From contig JAWOFX010000110.1 in assembly GCA_046497275.1 (NCBI GenBank), positions 1 through 24,310 of the forward strand: DNA of 24,310 nt, read 5' to 3'. The position numbers and the translations under genes are program-made. Below are positions 3,461-24,069 of the stretch, piece by piece; the first letter of the stretch is position 1; each line of letters begins with the position of its first letter. The notes under the pieces are model-generated. The model searched no databases, was not told where the DNA came from, and worked only from the letters and a program-made list of their open reading frames with translations. Source of the stretch: Promethearchaeia archaeon. GTDB lineage: Archaea > Asgardarchaeota > Lokiarchaeia > Sigyniarchaeales > SOKP01.

Positions 3461-6199
3461 TTAAATAAGATTTAATTGTTCTCTTAAATCTCTCAGCTTC
3501 TCTTTTGTTTTTGTCTCCTCAGGATTATTTATTAATCGTTTTTGATAGAAAAGAATATTTTGATATTTTAATTCTATCTTATTAAACAACTTTATCCATA
3601 AATTAAATCCATCCATTAATTCTTTTACTTTTTCATCTTCTGCAAAAGCCCTTATTTTCTCTCCATCTTCATCCATATAAGAAATTGCTTTATATTTTTT
3701 TAGTGAATATCCCTGTTCTTCTAAGAATTTTTTATTGAGGCGATTGATAATCGCATCAAGCTCGCTTCTCCAATGAAAATATCTCTCGTTTATTTTATTG
3801 AGGGAGTTTTGAATTATCTTAATTTCTTGCGGATAAATTGTTGAATCTTTCGTTAAAATTCTCTTTATTTTTTGAAATTCTTTATTAAAGTTATCATAAT
3901 AATTATTTACAATAATTTCAAATTCATCTAAACTATTTATGTAATTTTTAGCAAAAATTATTTCATCTCTGGTAAAGGTATAGGTTTCTTCATCAAATTC
4001 TCCTTTTAATTCTCCATTATTCCTAAGTTCATTGAAAATATCCATCAGAATTTCTAAATCTTTTTCGCTTAATTCTTTGCCATAAAATAGGTCATTAAAT
4101 GAAAAAAGCGCACCACTAGAAATCATCATCTCTTTGATTCCTTTTTCAGTATAAAATTTCACCTCGTTATCTTCTTCATAGAAAATTCCTTTTAGTGTTC
4201 CTGATTGTTGCAATTCCTCAATAAGATTCTTCATTAATTGTGAATTAATATCATATGTTCCTAAACTTATAACACTCTGCGATTGGGATTCTGTCTTGAC
4301 AAATTCTTTGATTTTTTTCTTTGCATTCTCGATTTTCGATGGATTAAAAATTATGGTATCTCCTTGAATTAAAAAATTAAGATTTAGCTCATTTAAATAT
4401 TCTAAAAAGATTTTGTATTCCATACCTGTTTTTGTGAGATACTCTGATATTTTAATTTGGTCTTTACTTTTGATTTCCTCTCCTATTGATTTAGTATTTT
4501 CCGCAATTTTGAGAAGGATTTCTTCTTTATTGATATTTAATTCTTGAGCAAAAATGTTTATTTCTTTCGCCTTCTTTTCCTTATCTTGAATCTTACTTAT
4601 AGAATCAATTCTTTCTTTAAGATATTTTGAATAATAAAATACCGTTCTCTCTTTATTCCAAAGTCCGCTTCTCTCATCAACAAAAGTATCAAAAATATCA
4701 TATAATAATATTTTATTAATACCAAATTTTTCTGAAATGCGATTTACATCAAAATATCCAATAATTTTAGTATTTTCTAACTCTCGTTCAATTTTCAATT
4801 TCCCAATATTTGTCAACCAAAAAGTTCTTTCATGAAAATTGGTTAAATATTCTTTTGGGAGATGTTTTATAAGTTTGATGAAGGATCTGTCTGTTAATTT
4901 CGTCTGATAATCCTTTAAGTCAATATAAGTTTCCTTTGTCGCCAATTCAACAATTCTTTTCTGAATTCTATCCATTAGAAAGAATTTTTCCTTCTCTCTC
5001 CCCAATAAAACTAAGAAATTATTCTCTTGAATGACATCTTTTATTAATTTTTTTACATAGGGTAAAGGAAGATGATTATAATCTTTTAAATCAATAACTC
5101 CATTCTTCTGCAGATCATCAATGAGTTGAGATTTGATATAATTTGCTGGATAAAAATAAAACTCTGAAAGATATCCTTGAATATGTCCTAATTTTACTAG
5201 GGTCTTAATAAATAGCTTTAGATCCTCCTTATTTATAATTTCAGAAAATCCCTCTAATATTTTATCATAAGAGACCTTATCCGATTGACTAAAAAAATTA
5301 TTTAATTTCTCTTTTTCAAGTTCATAAAAATAAATTTGTTTAGTTTCTTGATTTTTAGTATAAAAATAAATTTCTACATCTTTCAAGCTCAAATCTTTAA
5401 AACTTTCTAAAAATTCATTAAAATTAATTCCTTTTTTTTTGTTTAATTGTGTATAATTATATCTCTTTTTAATAAAAGTATTTTCTAAAAGCTCTTTTAA
5501 TTCATCTGCTTGTTTTGATATGAAATCTTCTTCCTTTAATTCAGGAAACTGTTGACATAATAGAGTTCCTAATGTGGTTTTAAGCATTTCTACATCTTGA
5601 TCGAAGAACGATTCAACTATTTCTTTACCAATGTTCCTTAATCTGTAAAGATGCTTAAATTTGAACTTCTCACAATTTTTTAAAAATTTTATAAGTAAAA
5701 TTATATTTCCGATTTTTTTTTGCTGAATTTCAAAATCAAATATTTCCAATAATTCATTTTTATTATCACGAAGCAATTCTGGTTTTAGTTTCAAAAAACG
5801 TTTAAGAAAGTAATAACAATTTTCTCGAATATCTTCATCTTTATTTGATAGTAACTCAATAAATTGTGAACTATATTTTTGATTGAGATATTTTGGATTA
5901 CTAAGTAAGAAAAACCCTAAGATTATAATAGAATTTAACTTTAGTTTTAAGTCTTCAGAGTTGATGAAAGGTTCAATGATCTGGATAAAATTCTGATCAT
6001 AAATTTCAGGATACTCTTCTATTACTATACTCAATACGTATGTAATAGGAACTTTCAGTCTTTCTTCTTTTAAAAGTTTTTTAAAATCTTCCATTAGTGA
6101 GGTGAGTTTTGACCTCTTGTCTTTTCTTATATACTTATTGAGCTTATTTATTTCCGAATGTAACTCTGGAAATGCTTCGAAATCGTCTATATTAAACAT
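3461..6199 (-). CDS. Large HEAT/ARM-like plus tandem winged-helix (PCI/UFL1-like) repeat protein
   Basis: 912 aa. N-terminal helical repeats (FIELLSNKDEDIRENC) are followed by recurring WH-like units (LVKLGHIQGYL, LQKNGVIDL, LQQSGTLKGIF, LRNNGELKGEFD). The C-terminus is helical/coiled-coil. Confidence 0.6.
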   Translation of the reverse strand: MFNIDDFEAFPELHSEINKLNKYIRKDKRSKLTSLMEDFKKLLKEERLKVPITYVLSIVIEEYPEIYDQNFIQIIEPFINSEDLKLKLNSIIILGFFLLSNPKYLNQKYSSQFIELLSNKDEDIRENCYYFLKRFLKLKPELLRDNKNELLEIFDFEIQQKKIGNIILLIKFLKNCEKFKFKHLYRLRNIGKEIVESFFDQDVEMLKTTLGTLLCQQFPELKEEDFISKQADELKELLENTFIKKRYNYTQLNKKKGINFNEFLESFKDLSLKDVEIYFYTKNQETKQIYFYELEKEKLNNFFSQSDKVSYDKILEGFSEIINKEDLKLFIKTLVKLGHIQGYLSEFYFYPANYIKSQLIDDLQKNGVIDLKDYNHLPLPYVKKLIKDVIQENNFLVLLGREKEKFFLMDRIQKRIVELATKETYIDLKDYQTKLTDRSFIKLIKHLPKEYLTNFHERTFWLTNIGKLKIERELENTKIIGYFDVNRISEKFGINKILLYDIFDTFVDERSGLWNKERTVFYYSKYLKERIDSISKIQDKEKKAKEINIFAQELNINKEEILLKIAENTKSIGEEIKSKDQIKISEYLTKTGMEYKIFLEYLNELNLNFLIQGDTIIFNPSKIENAKKKIKEFVKTESQSQSVISLGTYDINSQLMKNLIEELQQSGTLKGIFYEEDNEVKFYTEKGIKEMMISSGALFSFNDLFYGKELSEKDLEILMDIFNELRNNGELKGEFDEETYTFTRDEIIFAKNYINSLDEFEIIVNNYYDNFNKEFQKIKRILTKDSTIYPQEIKIIQNSLNKINERYFHWRSELDAIINRLNKKFLEEQGYSLKKYKAISYMDEDGEKIRAFAEDEKVKELMDGFNLWIKLFNKIELKYQNILFYQKRLINNPEETKTKEKLRDLREQLNLI

Positions 6200-6360
6200 G
6201 ATTCTTTTGAAATATTTTTATAGGTGAATGAAGCGTAAAATAAGAATTTTGTCGATAAAATTATAGGTATTACTTTTAAAATCCCAATGACAATCTCTTT
6301 TTTAGAAAGAGATAATGAAATTACAATTCTTGTTATAAAAAATAATTATAAATTCAGAAT

Positions 6361-6380
6361 AAAAATAAAATAAAAAAAAA
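6361..6380 (-). terminator. Oligo-T tract, putative terminator of the membrane protein gene
   Basis: The minus strand reads TTTTTTTTTATTTTATTTTT about 35 nt after the stop at 6415. Confidence 0.45.
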
Positions 6381-6414
6381 GACTTCTAATGATTAGATTT
6401 TTAACAAGAAACTT

Positions 6415-7074
6415 TTATTCCTCTTGTTCGTCTACCGATACGTGGGATAATAGGTGATCAATCCTATCTGCTTTATTATTGACATTTAACACCGTGGTGA
6501 GGGTAATAACTTCTTCTCTTCCGCCAGGTAATAATGTTATTTTACCTGCTCTCAAAAAGAGAAATTCAAACACGTCTGGGATAGACTTTTTAATTCTTAG
6601 GGCTTGTACCGGATATCTCTCAGCAGAACTGAAAATTCCGCTTTTATGATAGATTTCATTTCTTTCAACCTTCCAGTAGTCAAACTGAGCATTAATAACG
6701 ACGATTAATAGAACAAAACCAAATATGATGGTCATAGTTAAATAAAATTCAGCTGTGAGTCCTACGTTAAACAATCCCCCACCTCCACCTCCACCACCTA
6801 AATTTACGTTAGGAAGTATCAGAAATATTGTTACAATGATGGAAATCACGATGATAAGAATCAACACGAAAAACTTAGTGGATGAGAAATCAAAAGCGAT
6901 AACGAATACATTAATGAAAAAGATGCCTACCCAGAAATATCCAAGTATATAGTTTGGCTCTCCCGGTAAGAAATATTGAATCACCCAGAGTACCAGAGAG
7001 GTCAAGAACGTTGGATAGAAGAATATAATCTTAGGATAGCCTCTTAGAATGATTACTTCATCTGTTTGCGACAT
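6415..7074 (-). CDS. Four-TM membrane protein with C-terminal bacterial-PH-like (bPH_2-like) domain
   Basis: Four hydrophobic segments and a Gly8 loop between TM3 and TM4. The soluble C-terminus (YWKVERNEIYHKSGIF...FEFLFLRAGKITL) resembles bPH_2 domains. Confidence 0.55.
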   Translation of the reverse strand: MSQTDEVIILRGYPKIIFFYPTFLTSLVLWVIQYFLPGEPNYILGYFWVGIFFINVFVIAFDFSSTKFFVLILIIVISIIVTIFLILPNVNLGGGGGGGGLFNVGLTAEFYLTMTIIFGFVLLIVVINAQFDYWKVERNEIYHKSGIFSSAERYPVQALRIKKSIPDVFEFLFLRAGKITLLPGGREEVITLTTVLNVNNKADRIDHLLSHVSVDEQEE

Positions 7075-7224
7075 TTTTTTTAACCTTTTTAAAATGATTG
7101 TCCAATTAATTACATTGGGTTAATTAATATATAAACAAACTTACTTTAAAAAATGTTTTTAATATACACCAAATGCAATCTCCATTTAAAAATCAAAGGA
7201 AAATAAGAAAAAAGTAAACAAATT

Positions 7225-7971
7225 TTAGTAATAATTTCCAATAGAATGTACCATCCTATTCGATAAGGCAATTTGGGTATTTCCACTATCACTTATTCCC
7301 ATATGACCTGGAAGTAAATACGTAACATCTAGCCCATCCACAAATTCTATAGAATTCTGTAGTTTCTCTAAAGAGCCTCCGGGGAAATCAAATCTCCCAA
7401 AACTTCCCTCAATGAAGACTAGATCACCTGGAATAAGAATTTTTTTAATAGGTTCATAATATACGATAGATCCTTCCGAATGACCAGGCGTATGATAAAT
7501 TGTGAATTTGTATTCTGATCCAATATTAATAGGTGTATCAAGATTCAAGTCTGTCACGTTGATTGGATGTATATCAGCGCCAAACATACTGGGGCTTATC
7601 CCTAAACTTCTTGGAAAAATTTCGGAGGATTTTCCTTGCCGTAAGATTTCTGCGGTTCTTCCATAAGCAAAAATCTGAGGAGGATCCTTCTTTAATTCTT
7701 CTAATAATCTATATAATCCCAAGACATGATCAACATGTTCATGGGTAAGATATACTTTCGTAATATTTTCATAATTTAACTGAAATTTTTCCATTCCATC
7801 AAAAAGTCCGCTCAGAGATTTACCATTTCCAGCATCAAATAAAGCTAATTCGTCTGTTGTATCATCTTTAATAATATATTGATTGCAGTCGAGCATTGCT
7901 TGCTCTTCGAAATAAAATAAGGAGTCAACAACATTTCTTCCCATTTTTTGAGATCCTCCACTGAAAAACAT
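7225..7971 (-). CDS. Metallo-beta-lactamase-fold hydrolase (glyoxalase II-like)
   Basis: HxHxDH motif (THEHVDH), plus HTPGHSEG, GDLVF and PGH metal ligands. Confidence 0.92.
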   Translation of the reverse strand: MFFSGGSQKMGRNVVDSLFYFEEQAMLDCNQYIIKDDTTDELALFDAGNGKSLSGLFDGMEKFQLNYENITKVYLTHEHVDHVLGLYRLLEELKKDPPQIFAYGRTAEILRQGKSSEIFPRSLGISPSMFGADIHPINVTDLNLDTPINIGSEYKFTIYHTPGHSEGSIVYYEPIKKILIPGDLVFIEGSFGRFDFPGGSLEKLQNSIEFVDGLDVTYLLPGHMGISDSGNTQIALSNRMVHSIGNYY

Positions 7972-8082
7972 TTAACTATTCACTTTATACCTTAATTTTA
8001 AAATTATAAAATTAGCTTCCCTTAATTTTTTTATTCTTTCAAATTTTAAAAAATATAAGTAATAACAACATAATAGATAAAT

Positions 8083-8445
8083 ATGGAAGAGAATTCCGAT
8101 ATTGAAGAGCTAAAAGAAAAAGTTGATTTCGGAATAAAAATTTGGCTTGAATTTGAAGGAAAAAGTATTTTAGGGTCGGGCTGGGCGAATCTATTAGCAT
8201 GTATTGATAATAGCGATATCGAATCATTAACAGATGCTGCAAAAGAGTGCGAGTATTCGTATAAATATGCATGGAATATTTTAAAACGAATTGAAGAGAG
8301 AACTGGTTATTCTCCAGTCATAACTAGTAAGGGTGGACGTGGTGGAGGTGGGTGGGTTAAATTAAATAATTGGGGAACCTACTTACTTGAAAAATATAAG
8401 ACCCTATCTGAAGAAGTAGAAAAATTGAATATGAAATTAAAATAA
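8083..8445 (+). CDS. ModE-family N-terminal winged-helix regulator lacking TOBE domains
   Basis: SLTDAAKECEYSYKYAWNILKRIEE...VITSKGGRGGGG matches the ModE HTH signature. At 120 aa it has no molybdate-binding domain. Confidence 0.85.
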   Translation: MEENSDIEELKEKVDFGIKIWLEFEGKSILGSGWANLLACIDNSDIESLTDAAKECEYSYKYAWNILKRIEERTGYSPVITSKGGRGGGGWVKLNNWGTYLLEKYKTLSEEVEKLNMKLK

Positions 8446-8559
8446 TAAGAGTATCGAAAAACAAAATTAAATATCTTTTAATTAAAATGTTTATTATTTT
8501 CTATACCTATTAATTGGAAAAAGGACTTTAAAGAAGCATTTAGATTTCAAGTTGATTGA

Positions 8560-8994
8560 ATGGAAGAAAACGAGTATTCACTAAAAAAATTTGGGGAATT
8601 AAAAGTAAGTGAAATAATGGTGAGAGATCCTTTATATATAACTCCTAAAGAAAAAATAAGCGCCACAGAACTCCTTATGTTGCGTAAAAATATTGGCGGA
8701 CTCCCTGTGGTAGAATCTAAGGAAAGTAGAAAACTAATTGGCATAATAACTCAGAGAGATATAAGATTAGCTCGATTTGCTATGTCATTAGAATCACATA
8801 CTTTAGTTAAAGACCTTATGACTTCTGAACCTTATATTGCGAGGGAATCAGATACTTTAAAACAGATTTTAAAAAAAATGTTTAAATTTGATATTGAAAG
8901 ATTGCCTGTTGTTGATGAAAAGAATCAACTAATTGGGTTAATTCTCGAGAAAAATATTTTAGATAAATTGGCGGGATTCTTAATAGATGGTTAA
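8560..8994 (+). CDS. CBS-pair protein
   Basis: Two CBS units: VSEIM..P...GGLPVV...LIGIITQRD and VKDLMTSEP...ERLPVVD...LIGLI. Confidence 0.92.
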   Translation: MEENEYSLKKFGELKVSEIMVRDPLYITPKEKISATELLMLRKNIGGLPVVESKESRKLIGIITQRDIRLARFAMSLESHTLVKDLMTSEPYIARESDTLKQILKKMFKFDIERLPVVDEKNQLIGLILEKNILDKLAGFLIDG

Positions 8995-9080
8995 AAATTT
9001 AACTTAAAAAAAATCAAAATTTAATTATTAAAATTATTATTAATAACATACATTATTTAAGATTAAAAAAACTGATTTAA

Positions 9081-17753: not shown

Positions 17754-18707
17754 ATGCCAGATGTAGTAATTAAAACCCCAAATTTAGATGAAATCTTTGA
17801 AAAATGGAAACAAAAAGCTTATAGAACTGATAAAAAAAACCTTGAAAAACAATTTGGGACAAAAGGATCCGTTTTTTCGTTAGATGTCATTTCTGCAGCA
17901 GAAACTGTAAAAGATACCGTTAAGGAGGCAGCTATCTATTTTGCTGTTCAAAAATCAGTAGAACCAGCTAAAGGAAAAGAAGAAACACGTACAGTTAATG
18001 CAGATAAAGTATATAAGGAGACTTATTTTGAATTCAAAAATAATATCAATAAAGATAATTGGGATAAAGATGAGACTGTTCCATTTTATAATACTTTAAA
18101 ATCAAAACCTTGCCCAAATTGTAATGGAAGGGGCTATATTGAAAATAATTGCGATACTTGTGGAGGAAGTGGAAAGCAATCTGATAAGTTGATCGTTTTA
18201 ATTGGGGAGGAGATGAATAAAGATAAAAAAGTCTTCGAATATCCCTGTGGGAATTGTTTTGGAACAGGAAAAGTAAACGAACCTTGTAAAGAATGTGGGG
18301 GACATAAAAATCTTTATACATATCAAATTAAAGCAGTTCCGTTTAAAAGAGTGATAAGTGGTTTGCCTGTATTATATAGCAGTGCTAAAACGAAATATGA
18401 AAAAGAAATGGGAGAAGATCTTCACAAATTAATTGATGAAGTCGAAGGGATAAGTTTTAATGATTTTAAAACATTGGATAAAAAAGCAGAAGCTTCACTA
18501 GGCTATTATAATAAAAATATTAAGAAAACCATAAACAGTGCGGGAAAAGATTATAAAAATTATGATAAGGATGGAGATTACAAAATCGCCAGCAAAATAT
18601 ATCTTTTTCCGATGATTCAGATGGTATGCGAGACGAAGAAAGGTAAATCATTTGAAATATATTCTATTGGTTCCGATAAAAAGTTCATAACTTACTCTAA
18701 TTTCTAA
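17754..18707 (+). CDS. DnaJ-type Cys-rich zinc-finger protein without J domain (SSUH2-like)
   Basis: Repeats CPNCNGRG, CDTCGGSG, CGNCFGTG and CKECGGHK. No HPD motif. Confidence 0.75.
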   Translation: MPDVVIKTPNLDEIFEKWKQKAYRTDKKNLEKQFGTKGSVFSLDVISAAETVKDTVKEAAIYFAVQKSVEPAKGKEETRTVNADKVYKETYFEFKNNINKDNWDKDETVPFYNTLKSKPCPNCNGRGYIENNCDTCGGSGKQSDKLIVLIGEEMNKDKKVFEYPCGNCFGTGKVNEPCKECGGHKNLYTYQIKAVPFKRVISGLPVLYSSAKTKYEKEMGEDLHKLIDEVEGISFNDFKTLDKKAEASLGYYNKNIKKTINSAGKDYKNYDKDGDYKIASKIYLFPMIQMVCETKKGKSFEIYSIGSDKKFITYSNF

Positions 18708-19710: not shown

Positions 19711-19748
19711 ATATATAAGTTTGAGATTATATATAAGTTAAAACTTAT
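19711..19748 (+). promoter_or_regulatory. Direct and inverted repeat cluster upstream of the ECF S gene, candidate operator/promoter
   Basis: ATATATAAGTT occurs at 19711-19721 and 19729-19739. ATAAGTT-aa-AACTTAT palindrome at 19733-19748. Confidence 0.35.
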
Positions 19749-19770
19749 GCAAAAATTTTTGTGATTTTAA

Positions 19771-20376
19771 ATGAATGAATTAAATAATAATAAAAAAACC
19801 TTTTTTGGATATTATTTGCCAACAAATTCGTTATCTATTTCATTGATCGGAATATTTGGAGCTTTAGTCTGTGTAGTCACAATGGTAATAGCATTTCCAG
19901 TTCCCGCAACTAATGGGTATATAAATATTGGAGACGCAATGGTAATGTTGACTGCAATTATTTTTGGTCCAGTTATAGGAGGAATTGCTGGAGGTGTTGG
20001 TTCTGCTTTAGCCGATCTTTTTTTAGGATATATATTATATGCCCCTGCTACTTTGATCATAAAAGCATTAGAAGGAATTGTAGTTGGATTAATTGCTAAT
20101 CCAAAAAATATTGCAAAAAGATTCTCTTATAGAGATATAATTGGTGTGCTTATTGGAGGTTTGATAATGGTAATTGGCTACTTTATTTACGAAATAATAC
20201 TGTATGGGTTGTATGCCGCTATATATGAAGTAATTCTAAATGGGTTAATCCAATATGGGTTAGGGATATTAATTTCATTATTACTAACAGTTCCTCTCAG
20301 AAAAGCATTGGATGAATCAATATCACAAATATATGAAAGCATTTATATTGTTGATAAGCAAAAATTCGCTGAATAA
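19771..20376 (+). CDS. ECF transporter S component (substrate-binding membrane subunit)
   Basis: Multiple TM helices with the typical pattern FPVPATNGYINIGD...AIIFGP..GGIAGGVGSALAD...YAPATLIIK. Confidence 0.88.
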   Translation: MNELNNNKKTFFGYYLPTNSLSISLIGIFGALVCVVTMVIAFPVPATNGYINIGDAMVMLTAIIFGPVIGGIAGGVGSALADLFLGYILYAPATLIIKALEGIVVGLIANPKNIAKRFSYRDIIGVLIGGLIMVIGYFIYEIILYGLYAAIYEVILNGLIQYGLGILISLLLTVPLRKALDESISQIYESIYIVDKQKFAE

Positions 20377-20413: not shown

Positions 20414-21856
20414 TTAAAGCAAACTAATAAGCGTTTCAAGCGCCTCTAAGACTTTTTTACCCTTGTCTGTAATCCTATAATACACAGATTTTCCTTTTTT
20501 TTTCCTATTGATTAAATTTTTCTCTTCTAATTCCTTTAAATGTTGATAAACCGCTGCCAAACTTATCCCTCCCAATATTTCTTGGATTTTTTTTCCATAT
20601 ATACCTTTTTCATGAGATAATGAGATTTGTGATAATATTTTCAATTTTGTACTTAGAATACCCCCTAAACTAGCTGTTTTCGCCCGACTGGAAAGTGCTT
20701 CTAAAACATGAGGGGTTTTTAATCCCGAACCTGTAATCATGCAAACTACTTTTTCATCTTCATTTATTTTATTCTGCTGTCTTAATGTATTAACAGCAGC
20801 TATTGTAAGAGCAGAGGCAGGTTCGGCAAAAATACCTTCATTGCTAGCTAATTCTTCTGCGGCAGTTAACATAATATTTTCTGGAATTGATAATGCGATC
20901 CCATTAGTTTCTTTAATCGCATTTATAGCTAAATCCTGATAAAAAGGTTCTTTAACTAATATACCTAACGCATAGGAATCATAATCTGCTCCTAAAGATT
21001 GGTTGAGTTCTAATTTATTTTTCTCTAATTGATCCACTATTGGAGAAGAAACTTGCGATTGAACACCTATCATCATAGGTATTTTATTGATTATCTTAGC
21101 TCTTTTTAATTCTTTAAAACCTTTCCAAATACTTATTAATAATCCTCCGCTCCCCATAGGGATAATAATTCCATCCACGTTACCTATTTGATTATAAATT
21201 TCATAAGATATCGTTTTTTGCGCTTCAATCGTAAGAGGATTATATTCTGGAGTTGCTTGATAATAATCACTATATTCCCTTTTCTTAACCTCTTCTATCG
21301 CTTCATCCACATAATCACCATGACTGATGATTTTAGAATTATAAGCAATCATTTGTGCTTTTTTGCCAACATCCATTTTTTTAGGAATAATATTAATACA
21401 CTCTAAGCCCTCAACAGATGCATAAGCTGCAATAGATGCTCCTTGGTTGCCATTTGAAGCACAAACGATCTTTTTATAATTTAAACTTCGAGCGTGAGAT
21501 ACAAGAAGCGCAGCAGCACGATCTTTAAAAGAATTAGTAGGGTTTTGAGTTTCATCTTTAAAGTAGAGATCATTAATATTCCAAATTTTCCCTAATCTTT
21601 TTGATAACCTGCATGGAGTTCCCCCTTCTCCTATGCTTACAATGTAATTTTTATCTATATCAGGTAGTATGGATCTATAATCCCAAAAATTCTCTAAATT
21701 TTTTTTTTCAAAAATTTGTTTAACTTTAGAAATCGGAACTTCAATTAATACCAACTTATCACATTTAGGACATTTAAATATTATTTCTGAACTTTTAAAT
21801 TTGGAATTACAATTATAGCATTTATATAAGAATTCTCTGAATCTCTCTTTATCCAT
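20414..21856 (-). CDS. Threonine-synthase-like fold-type II PLP protein with N-terminal Zn ribbon and C-terminal winged HTH
   Basis: CYNC...CPKC, GEGGTP, KDE..NPT.SFKDR (PLP Lys111), PMGSGGLL, EPASA and ITGSGLK. The last ~83 aa are a PadR/ArsR-like wHTH (SLAAVYQHLKELEEKNLI...VYYRITDKG). Confidence 0.87.
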   Translation of the reverse strand: MDKERFREFLYKCYNCNSKFKSSEIIFKCPKCDKLVLIEVPISKVKQIFEKKNLENFWDYRSILPDIDKNYIVSIGEGGTPCRLSKRLGKIWNINDLYFKDETQNPTNSFKDRAAALLVSHARSLNYKKIVCASNGNQGASIAAYASVEGLECINIIPKKMDVGKKAQMIAYNSKIISHGDYVDEAIEEVKKREYSDYYQATPEYNPLTIEAQKTISYEIYNQIGNVDGIIIPMGSGGLLISIWKGFKELKRAKIINKIPMMIGVQSQVSSPIVDQLEKNKLELNQSLGADYDSYALGILVKEPFYQDLAINAIKETNGIALSIPENIMLTAAEELASNEGIFAEPASALTIAAVNTLRQQNKINEDEKVVCMITGSGLKTPHVLEALSSRAKTASLGGILSTKLKILSQISLSHEKGIYGKKIQEILGGISLAAVYQHLKELEEKNLINRKKKGKSVYYRITDKGKKVLEALETLISLL

Positions 21857-21910: not shown

Positions 21911-21936
21911 ATCTATTATTATATAAAATAATAGAT
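21911..21936. promoter_or_regulatory. Perfect 10-bp inverted repeat enclosing a TATA-like box, candidate operator
   Basis: ATCTATTATT-atataa-AATAATAGAT. Minus-strand TTTATATA at 21920-21927 lies about 64 nt upstream of the ATG at 21856. Confidence 0.5.
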
Positions 21937-22041: not shown

Positions 22042-24069
22042 CTATCTAATCTTTTCATCCAAAATTCCTTCTTGATAATTCTTCTGTGTAAGTTGTTTAA
22101 TTTCAGATTCATTTTCTCCATTCTGAGAAGAAATATTCTCATTTTTTATTCTCTCTTCAGTAGCTTCTAATATCTCTTTTAGCATATCATTGTAAGATAA
22201 TCCATCAATTTTTGCCATTTTCGCTAAATGTCCGTCCCAACACCATCCAGGATTAGGATTCACCTCTAGAAGTTTTGGATTTCCTTCAGCATCAAGGCGC
22301 CAGTCAAATCGACAATAATCTCGGCATTCTAATCGTTTGAATAATTTTACAGAACAATCTATTATAAAATTTTTCTTCTCTTCACTTATTCTAGCTGGGA
22401 TTGATTTGATATTCCAATAAGGAGAATCAGGCATCCATTTAGCTTCGTAACCGCAAATTCTTGGGAGATCTTCTGGTAATGCAGTATAATCTTCTTCTAT
22501 AATAGGAAGTACCCTATAAGAATTATCAGGATTTCCAATTATTCCTACAGACAAATCTGCACCAGATAAAAATTCTTCAATAAGAATAGGTTTATCATAT
22601 CCAAATTTTTGACGTATTTCAGTTATGATGTTTACAAGATCTTCTCCATTTTCCACATAACTATTTTGAGTAATTCCAAAACTAGAGTCGCCATAGTTTG
22701 GTTTGACTAATACAGGGAAATTAAAGGGAAGGAATTGATATGTAAAATCTTCTTGTTTTATATAAATTCCATCGCCAACTGGTATATTCATTTCCTTGGC
22801 AATCCCACGCACCAATGATTTATCATAACAAAATGCTAAACATTGAGGTCCTCCACCAGTAAAAGGAATATTTAGAACTTCTAGTAATGCGGGGACATGT
22901 AATTCTTTTCGAGCATCATTGTAATACCCCTCATCGCATAAATTAAAGACGAAATCAATTTTATTTTTCATTTTTATTAAGTCCCAGATAAGAGTATCAT
23001 GATTATCTAAATATATGAAATTGTATCCATCCATCTCATTCAATGCTGCTTTTAACTCATTAATCGTATATAAATCATCATCATCAAACACATGTGAAGG
23101 TTTCACCACATCGCTTTTCCTGGGGTCCCCCATAATTACATAAACATTCTTAACTTCTTTCTTAGGCTTTTTTGGACTCCAATCTTTTTGAATAGTCGCA
23201 GAAATTAGAATTCTCTGTTCCATCATTCCTAAATCTTGATTTCTTTCAGAATTGGGTGTTATTTTGTCATAGAGGGTTGGTTTGGTAAACCCTGCAAATT
23301 CGAGTAATTCGGAAATCTTTTTTTCGGTGTACAACCTTTCAGCATAAAATTGGTCAGCGATTACTCCATGATTTACATCTGTGATTACTTCTCTTGAGAT
23401 TAAGCGTTCCTTGTCAAGAGAGAGATTTCGCTCCCTGCATACAAAAAATCTTTTATTAATCCATTCCCATGATCTTTTATTAAAATTATTTAGGAGATAC
23501 TCCCCATCGGTAATATCCAAAAATATTTTTCCTAATGGTTTTAGAACTCTTTTTACTTCTTTTAAAACTTTTAAATCATCATGTTTTGATTCAAAATACC
23601 CAAAACTATTTCCTAAGATCATCACAACGTCAAAATTATCTGTAGAGTATGATAATTTTCTTGCATCTCCTTCTTTAAAATGAACAGATAAATTTTCCTT
23701 TAAGCAAGTTGTTTTGGCTCGTTTAATTAAATAAGAAGATTGATCAAGACCATATAAGTTTTTAAAACCTCTTCTTGATAATTCTAATAGATGCCTTCCT
23801 TGGCCACAGCATAAATCTAAAATTTTATCATCCTTTTTGAGATTAAGATAATCTATAATTAATGAAACTTCATTTGAGGTAATTTTAGGATCATTTACCA
23901 CATCTCCATCAGTTTTTAGATAATTAGAATTAAATATATGTTTCCACCAATCAGAGTGTACATACTCTTCCAAGTTTTCAATTGGACCAAAACTAGTGGT
24001 TTTTAATATATTATGTTTTTTATTCATTTTTATTTGATTAGAATTGTTATTCTCTTCAGTTTTTTTCAT
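22042..24069 (-). CDS. Class I SAM methyltransferase fused to a D-Ala-D-Ala-ligase-like ATP-grasp domain
   Basis: N-terminal half: ILDLCCGQGRH, GLD.S, EGDAR, GNSFGYF. C-terminal half: FNLCDEG, LLEVLNIPFTG, DK, VKP..GDSSFGI, IEEFLSG, YEAKW, RFDWR, LEVNPNPG. Confidence 0.9.
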   Translation of the reverse strand: MKKTEENNNSNQIKMNKKHNILKTTSFGPIENLEEYVHSDWWKHIFNSNYLKTDGDVVNDPKITSNEVSLIIDYLNLKKDDKILDLCCGQGRHLLELSRRGFKNLYGLDQSSYLIKRAKTTCLKENLSVHFKEGDARKLSYSTDNFDVVMILGNSFGYFESKHDDLKVLKEVKRVLKPLGKIFLDITDGEYLLNNFNKRSWEWINKRFFVCRERNLSLDKERLISREVITDVNHGVIADQFYAERLYTEKKISELLEFAGFTKPTLYDKITPNSERNQDLGMMEQRILISATIQKDWSPKKPKKEVKNVYVIMGDPRKSDVVKPSHVFDDDDLYTINELKAALNEMDGYNFIYLDNHDTLIWDLIKMKNKIDFVFNLCDEGYYNDARKELHVPALLEVLNIPFTGGGPQCLAFCYDKSLVRGIAKEMNIPVGDGIYIKQEDFTYQFLPFNFPVLVKPNYGDSSFGITQNSYVENGEDLVNIITEIRQKFGYDKPILIEEFLSGADLSVGIIGNPDNSYRVLPIIEEDYTALPEDLPRICGYEAKWMPDSPYWNIKSIPARISEEKKNFIIDCSVKLFKRLECRDYCRFDWRLDAEGNPKLLEVNPNPGWCWDGHLAKMAKIDGLSYNDMLKEILEATEERIKNENISSQNGENESEIKQLTQKNYQEGILDEKIR

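Follow-up and report, generated by a model that had tools for sequence, protein, structure and literature searches.

To our knowledge, few metabolite-sensing regulators have been characterised in Archaea, and none for vitamin B6. Thiamine has ThiR, an archaeal vitamin regulator with an enzyme-derived domain, and we know of no described archaeal B6 counterpart of either ThiR or the riboflavin regulator RbkR. RbkR is presented as an archaeal vitamin regulator in which a DNA-binding domain is fused to the vitamin's own metabolic domain (PMC5397151). Among bacterial regulators, PdxR is described as sensing pyridoxal 5'-phosphate (PLP) and controlling B6 supply genes (PMC5320631; PMC9997740). Literature searches for a family joining a threonine synthase (ThrC) fold to a winged helix-turn-helix (wHTH) domain, or for an archaeal B6 regulator, found no description. 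Here we analysed a stretch of 24,310 nucleotides from a Promethearchaeia archaeon of the Lokiarchaeia (contig JAWOFX010000110.1, positions 1 to 24,310; hereafter the window). It carries a gene whose 480-aa product combines an N-terminal zinc ribbon, a ThrC-type PLP domain and a C-terminal wHTH domain, and which lies beside a gene for a vitamin importer component. The names of database matches to this gene point to Promethearchaeota (Lokiarchaeota-type Asgard archaea). Taken together, the evidence below makes it probable that this protein is a dimeric one-component B6 (PLP)-sensing repressor of the adjacent PdxU/PdxU2-type importer gene.

Divergence from threonine synthase

An HMMER alignment with Thermus ThrC (1UIM), from which residue equivalences were counted by hand, paired K111 with the Schiff-base lysine K61 and revealed replacements at T85 (N135), T88 (Q138), N154 (P203), S155 (E204), R160 (T209) and N188 (S236). 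Omi et al. in 2003 reportedly found that T88, N154, S155, R160 and N188 of the Thermus enzyme bind the phosphate of O-phosphohomoserine. The NSVNPxR motif, common to all four solved bacterial ThrCs that were aligned, reads PEYNPLT here. An earlier note on this DNA, made by reading the sequence, had used the Thermus numbering and listed the PLP motifs as intact and the phosphate-holding residues as replaced (ASNGNQ and PEYNPLT). The alignment reproduced the numbering and placed Q138, P203, E204 and T209 at the positions in question, and every quoted motif was present where the note had it: SFKDR with K111, PMGSGGLL (residues 233-240), EPASA (345-349) and ITGSGLK (374-380).

Against the equivalog model TIGR00260 (cut-off 167.1 bits) the 480-aa protein scored 166.2 bits, and a six-frame search gave 167.1 bits. 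The best model was NF004170/PRK05638 (353.1 bits, under its cut-off of 421), positions 3-442 of 442 of which were matched by residues 12-474, with zinc ribbon, ThrC fold and wHTH all present. Elsewhere in the host genome (3.85 Mb, 188 contigs, 98.9 % complete) we identified a canonical class-II thrC, which the earlier note had suggested looking for (449 aa; TIGR00260 248.9 bits, cut-off 167.1), as well as a second ThrC-type paralog of the zinc-ribbon PRK08197 type (552 bits, cut-off 303). Because the phosphate-site residues are replaced and two other ThrC-type genes pass their cut-offs, the protein, judged by its sequence, is neither needed for nor built for threonine synthesis, in line with the note's view that it is no working ThrC.

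Database names imply the opposite, namely a genuine threonine synthase with an extra DNA-binding tail. The best NCBIfam model is named 'threonine synthase', homologs are so labelled in database sources (some as 'pyridoxal-phosphate dependent enzyme'), and the six-frame TIGR00260 score equals the cut-off exactly. Set against this are the replacement of all the reported O-phosphohomoserine phosphate ligands, the two further genes that exceed ThrC-type cut-offs, and the nature of NF004170 itself, which is typified by a Thermococcus chitonophagus protein (P0138, 799.6 bits) whose catalytic Lys has become Arg (SFRDR). We therefore regard a genuine threonine synthase as very improbable, and the name 'threonine synthase' for NF004170 is probably wrong.

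Conservation of the PLP pocket across the wHTH-bearing family

To survey the family, including the co-occurrence of wHTH fusion and loss of the Arg160 equivalent that the earlier note had proposed to examine, representatives of clusters at 50 % identity were searched exhaustively with HMMER, and the matches were aligned and tabulated. None of the 76 wHTH-bearing relatives had the R160 equivalent, compared to 21 of the 67 wHTH-less relatives. The Schiff-base lysine followed an even sharper division, being present in 66/67 wHTH-less forms and just 3/76 wHTH forms, where it was substituted by R, I, L, M, V, T, S, F and others. In a maximum-likelihood tree the wHTH forms fell on one side. A subclade with support of 99 united K->R forms, among them the PRK05638 seed from Thermococcales, with an Asgard clade (support 100) that retains the Lys and contains the gene described here. 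Within the Asgard clade all 121 clusters (at least 55 % identity) had the lysine, and the ASNGNQ and PE.NPLT motifs were nearly invariant.

Two other sets of residues were conserved throughout the wHTH family. In a 60-sequence alignment, N137, G235, G237, T375 and E345, the equivalents of ThrC positions that touch the PLP ring and phosphate, were invariant or nearly so, as were Y437, Q438, H439 and L440 of the DNA recognition helix. The helix motif [VI]YQH[LI] was found in 76 of 80 species loci, which were drawn from species-representative genomes of Prometh-, Hermod-, Hod-, Odin-, Thor-, Jord- and Baldrarchaeota and, outside the Asgard lineages, of Bathyarchaeia, Thermoproteota, Terraquivivens, Thermococci and methanogens. 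Since the PLP contacts have been kept while the lysine has mostly been lost, these alignments suggest that the pocket is preserved for a B6-like ligand and that catalysis is dispensable in the wHTH family.

A bifunctional trigger enzyme was considered as an alternative, whereby the Lys-retaining Asgard form, besides regulating the importer gene, would perform some PLP reaction other than threonine synthesis, such as a beta/gamma-elimination or replacement or one that acts on a B6-related compound. The intact Schiff-base Lys, Asn137, Gly-rich phosphate loop and T375 fit such a role, as do the strong purifying selection on the pocket and the wHTH-less neighbours in the tree, which are presumably enzymes. 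Against it, Lys is absent from 73 of the 76 wHTH forms, so that their shared role does not need it; pathway genes are not co-located; and the residues of the asparagine loop and phosphate site are unlike those of every solved ThrC aligned. A trigger enzyme consequently appears quite unlikely.

Linkage to a B6-family importer gene

The gene adjacent to the putative regulator encodes the substrate-binding (S) component of an energy-coupling factor (ECF) transporter, and the two genes are convergent (tail-to-tail) with a gap of 37 nt. It was the single PF07155 gene found in the host genome, and the only strong match of its product among PDB sequences was 4HZU chain S (HmpT/PdxU2; E 1e-14), the next having an E-value of 0.016. 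Three of the five reported ligand-contact positions of 4HZU_S are matched, being identical or showing Glu->Asp. PF07155 (COG4720), despite its Pfam name, is the family of both characterised B6 S components, PdxU and PdxU2/HmpT (PMC9997740; PMC4860826). ThiC is present in the host genome, indicating that hydroxymethylpyrimidine (HMP) is made de novo, and there is no need to read 'HmpT' as an HMP importer.

Among relatives of the same family carrying an ortholog of the regulator, the importer gene adjoins that ortholog in 13 of 13, whilst the other neighbours vary. In other families of the order it lies beside K->R homologs of 32-37 % identity and is co-directional with them. It converges with a Helarchaeota K->S form and diverges from a K->I form. 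Across the 80 species loci, a PF07155-like gene was found within 500 bp of the regulator gene, and usually within 100 bp, in 57, spanning Asgard lineages, Bathyarchaeia, Thermoproteota and Terraquivivens in convergent, co-directional or divergent arrangement. No PF07155-like gene was seen at 20 of the 80 loci, but several of these are on short contigs that end near the gene, and the figure should not be taken as proof that the importer is missing. Chance adjacency would be of the order of 10^-3 given one importer gene per genome, although the genomes are related and the trials therefore not independent. The persistence of the pairing through three arrangements argues for a functional link.

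The identity of this linked gene also bears on a third alternative, a GabR-like sensor of amines or amino acids. Here PLP would be a permanent cofactor on K111 with which the effector forms an external aldimine, thereby shifting DNA binding. The presence of K111 in every cluster of the Asgard clade and its nearly invariant pocket motifs are compatible with this, E204 in place of the phosphate-binding Ser would favour a non-phosphorylated or cationic ligand, and GabR of the MocR family (PMC5320631) offers precedent. However, sister lineages with the same genomic context and recognition helix have K->R/S/I/L, which makes an internal aldimine impossible, and the conserved target is a B6-family importer rather than an amino-acid pathway gene. 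We deem the GabR-like sensor unlikely.

A conserved palindrome as candidate operator upstream of the importer gene

The importer gene of the window is preceded by two abutting palindromes, TATAAGTTTGAGATTATA (site 1) and TATAAGTTAAAACTTATG (site 2), which form a candidate operator. The palindrome TATAAGTT-NN-AACTTATA was found 5' of the importer gene in 14 of 14 genomes of the family, where flanking sequence has diverged, and mostly occurred as two copies 16-18 bp apart. A position weight matrix (PWM) was built from 28 sites, two of which are the window sites themselves, introducing slight circularity into their scores of 20.2 and 17.1 bits. The former was the top score genome-wide, and only three sites of at least 17 bits were present in the 3.85-Mb genome, two of them here. 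The second-best match (C151:11307, 18.4 bits), situated between genes for a tetratricopeptide repeat protein and an esterase, was considered as a further operator and taken as chance, since about two perfect 12-base cores would be expected at random in the AT-rich genome of the host.

One relative (G010, 99 % complete) has the importer gene and lacks both regulator and motif. Two cores related to that of the palindrome, AAGT-N3/4-AACTT and TATAAGC-N4-GCCTATA, were found among the K->R, K->S and K->I lineages, in agreement with the near-universal recognition helix. We infer that the palindrome is bound by the wHTH of the regulator. As the sites end 21 nt before the start codon, the candidate operator must overlap the core promoter of the importer gene, an arrangement typical of repression in Archaea.

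Vitamin B6 metabolism of the host and apparent exchange with pdxST

Profile searches of the 98.9 %-complete genome did not find PdxS, PdxJ or a true PdxT, and tblastn with PdxS and PdxT of a relative gave no match in the genome. The host therefore appears unable to make PLP de novo and to be B6-auxotrophic. The genome does have one gene for a Phos_pyr_kin kinase and two for EcfT. Among 31 related genomes, pdxS was found in two. One of these, G008, is the sole relative of the same family in which pdxS was found, and it lacks both importer and regulator. Its pdxS-pdxT pair (L079, G008:C177 5943-7597) occupies the same syntenic slot as the importer-regulator pair elsewhere, with a DnaJ-type zinc-finger gene and a DEAD-box/DUF5814 helicase gene as neighbours. 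The two B6 supply modules thus look interchangeable at one locus.

A different arrangement was seen at one of the 80 species loci, where pdxS-pdxT immediately follows the regulator gene. Positions 6001-9046 of a contig titled Candidatus Limnocylindrales bacterium (L102, DATHCJ010000024.1) contain a K->R ThrC-wHTH gene followed by pdxS-pdxT. The presence of an archaeal-type gene in this bacterial, Chloroflexota-type bin reflects either mis-binning or horizontal transfer of a regulator together with B6 synthase.

A putative B6 supply module

The above results can be accommodated by a model in which regulator and importer constitute the B6 supply module of the host. The ThrC-derived domain, with its PLP pocket kept and its O-phosphohomoserine site lost, would sense B6 status, binding PLP by a reversible Schiff base on K111 in the Asgard clade and non-covalently in the Lys-less relatives. 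Closure of the pocket would move the tethered pair of wHTH domains onto the tandem palindromes. With sufficient B6 the holo-protein would then sit on the operator and repress the importer gene, and with scarce B6 it would release the DNA. What the analysis shows is the domain anatomy, the lost ThrC substrate residues, the linkage of the genes, the conserved upstream palindrome and the lack of pdxS, pdxT and pdxJ in the assembly, whereas binding to the operator, the nature of the ligand and the sign of regulation are inferred.

Several points weigh against a B6-sensing repressor. Support for it is all comparative, and the substrate of the importer is assigned solely through its family (58 bits to 4HZU_S). 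The conservation of K111, ASNGNQ and PE.NPLT in the Asgard clade would fit equally a protein that has kept some chemistry, or one whose effector is an amine forming an external aldimine. The operator motif resembles a TATA box, and its conservation could be due in part to a role in the promoter. At the Thermococcus chitonophagus locus, neither PF07155 nor pdxST was found within 5 kb of the gene. Finally, the PWM detected no operator-type site at the regulator's own promoter or at the genes for the ThiD/PdxK-family kinase and EcfT, and in the lack of such sites at other B6 and ECF loci the regulon appears to comprise one local gene.

The earlier note had proposed a one-component regulator, and this suggestion gains from the almost entirely Lys-less wHTH clade, the linked target gene and the conserved palindromic operator. 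Its choice of an amino acid as ligand is not supported as put forward, since the importer target, the lack of de novo PLP genes and the Lys-less sister lineages make a B6 vitamer (PLP) the likelier ligand. A broader claim follows: that these proteins are the first archaeal family of B6-responsive transcription factors, derived from fold-type II enzymes independently of MocR/PdxR, in which the Asgard clade tethers PLP on the ancestral Lys and most relatives do not, and that this member represses the importer of a B6-auxotrophic Lokiarchaeon. We consider the odds of that full statement to be evenly balanced.

If the B6-sensing reading is true, a large family is mis-annotated across Asgard lineages, Bathyarchaeia, Thermoproteota and Thermococcales, and such mislabelling distorts metabolic reconstructions, including calls of amino-acid prototrophy for Asgard archaea. 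It would also constitute convergent evolution, whereby PLP-enzyme folds of two types were made into B6 sensors in Bacteria and Archaea, and it would mean that these Lokiarchaea need external B6, with a bearing on their syntrophic lifestyle and on cultivation media. The Lys-retaining and Lys-less sister clades provide a natural experiment in the passage from enzyme to receptor.

Protein anatomy, predicted dimer and possible expression

Coordinates of the regulator gene, its encoded domains and motifs, the importer gene and the candidate operator are listed in Table 1. The PALP domain (PF00291) was matched with an E-value of 2.4e-68. Zinc-ribbon residues C13, C16, C29 and C32 are kept in at least 90 % of the 60-sequence alignment, and a zinc ribbon is also present in the wHTH-less PRK08197-type paralog of the same genome. 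For the C-terminal tail, which the earlier note had described as a complete wHTH fused in frame, both PadR (PF03551; 29.8 bits, cut-off 27) and HxlR (27.3 bits, cut-off 20.8) exceeded their Pfam thresholds over residues 422-477. An AlphaFold2 model built on the 60-sequence alignment (mean predicted local distance difference test score, pLDDT, 89.1) upheld that description, with three helices (403-413, 421-428 and 433-445) and a beta-hairpin (strands 449-454 and 457-462). The recognition helix, 433-445, bears VYQHL at 436-440, and the linker at 381-399 is disordered. The solved sequences nearest to this tail are AspA, NolR and ArsR/SmtB proteins, all site-specific DNA binders. Foldseek matches of the model were to ThrC and related fold-type II enzymes only, and the wHTH was covered by none.

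Table 1. Positions within the window of the candidate regulator gene, its parts, the importer gene and the candidate operator
Feature	Position	Strand	Basis or remark
Candidate operator, two abutting 18-bp palindromes	19714..19749		ends 21 nt before importer ATG
Operator site 1	19714-19731		palindrome
Operator site 2	19732-19749		palindrome
ECF transporter S component, PdxU/PdxU2 (PF07155) family, 201 aa, candidate target	19771..20376	+	PF07155 1.3e-35
ThrC-fold/wHTH gene (P0001), candidate B6-sensing regulator	20414..21856	-	open reading frame open, 480 aa
PadR/ArsR-like wHTH, residues 403-479	20420..20650	-	Pfam and AlphaFold2 model
Flexible linker, residues 381-399	20660..20716	-	pLDDT <50, AlphaFold2 model
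Fold-type II PLP domain (ThrC fold), residues 74-376	20729..21637	-	Pfam, Foldseek, 1UIM alignment
Altered motif PEYNPLT, residues 203-209	21230-21250	-	
Altered motif ASNGNQ, residues 133-138	21443-21460	-	
Schiff-base lysine K111, in SFKDR 109-113	codon 21524-21526	-	aligned with Thermus K61
N-terminal zinc ribbon CYNC...CPKC, residues 13-32	21761..21820	-	sequence motif CxxC...CxxC

A homodimer was predicted with a score of 0.67, compared to 0.00 for the best control. Among proteins of solved structure, 20 of 30 one-chain pairs attained the mark, as did 1 of 23 single chains. Contact agreement between runs was at least 90 %, the pLDDT of the partner was at least 81, and the interface was formed by the PLP domain. 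This result may merely mirror likeness to ThrC, whose dimers are solved. The predicted dimer is consistent with two wHTH domains on one palindrome.

Both the regulator and the importer gene were covered by near-identical contigs in salt-lake metatranscriptome libraries from two studies, a weak hint of expression given that DNA carry-over is possible. Transcript starts are unreadable in such RNA-library contigs, and uncovered parts of the stretch carry no meaning.

A second palindrome and other genes of the window

A perfect 10-N6-10 palindrome, ATCTATTATT-N6-AATAATAGAT, was identified at 21911-21936, 55-80 nt 5' of the regulator gene, where it brackets a TATA-like box. The 3.85-Mb genome contains exactly one further perfect copy and no near-copies at one or two mismatches. 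That copy (C69:85727-85752; L010:5728-5753) is situated between the sole gene for leucyl-tRNA synthetase (LeuRS) and a 163-aa open reading frame without a family. The two copies have identical arms with different spacers and flanks, as for a shared transcription-factor site, and about 5e-4 such copies would be expected by chance, as estimated from base composition. An autoregulatory operator was considered and rejected here, the palindrome being unlike the importer operator and absent 5' of the orthologs in 10 relatives. It is kept only in a 92 %-identical relative whose entire 115-nt promoter block is identical, and not 5' of orthologs from other genera. The operator PWM gave no match in the 21911-21936 region and no operator-type site at the LeuRS locus. 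This palindrome may belong to another regulator.

The remaining genes of the window included one for a 675-aa fusion (22042-24069, minus strand) of an S-adenosylmethionine-dependent methyltransferase (residues ~70-190) and a D-Ala-D-Ala-ligase-like ATP-grasp domain (~340-640), tblastn matches to which adjoin the regulator gene in two relatives (L028 and L035). Beside the variable B6 module, a syntenic pair conserved across the family encodes a protein of 317 aa with zinc fingers of the DnaJ type, CXXCXGXG (17754-18707, plus strand), and a DEAD-box helicase of 906 aa that ends in a DUF5814 tail (14581-17301, minus strand). The gene at 9081-10616 (plus strand) encodes 511 aa, in which an actin domain (PF00022, 7e-75) precedes several zinc-ribbon motifs at the C-terminus. 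The product resembles a fusion of an Asgard actin with zinc ribbons.

Comparison with known systems

The likeness of this protein to ThrC (structures 1UIM, 6CGQ, 2ZSJ and 2D1F) comprises the fold (Foldseek E 7e-26, 29-33 % identity), the SFKDR lysine motif and a dimer interface predicted for the same domain. It differs in the replacement of T88, N154, S155, R160 and N188, in its additional wHTH and zinc ribbon, and in being redundant with a canonical thrC. With NF004170/PRK05638 it shares the same three-part architecture and the same wHTH clade of the tree, but the Thermococcus member has Arg for Lys and no adjacent importer gene. RbkR and ThiR differ in having kinase-derived sensor folds and in serving other vitamins. 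The resemblance to PdxR, MocR and GabR lies in an enzyme-derived PLP domain fused to a wHTH and, in the proposed logic, in a dimeric one-component regulator that binds repeated or palindromic sites. In MocR proteins, however, the wHTH is N-terminal and of the GntR type, and it is joined to an aminotransferase-like domain of fold-type I; neither is found here. Instead, the archaeal protein combines a fold-type II domain (PF00291) with a C-terminal PadR/HxlR-like wHTH and an N-terminal zinc ribbon, and most members of its family, unlike MocR, are without the Schiff-base Lys. It has no homology to PdxR, to which its relation would be one of functional analogy only.

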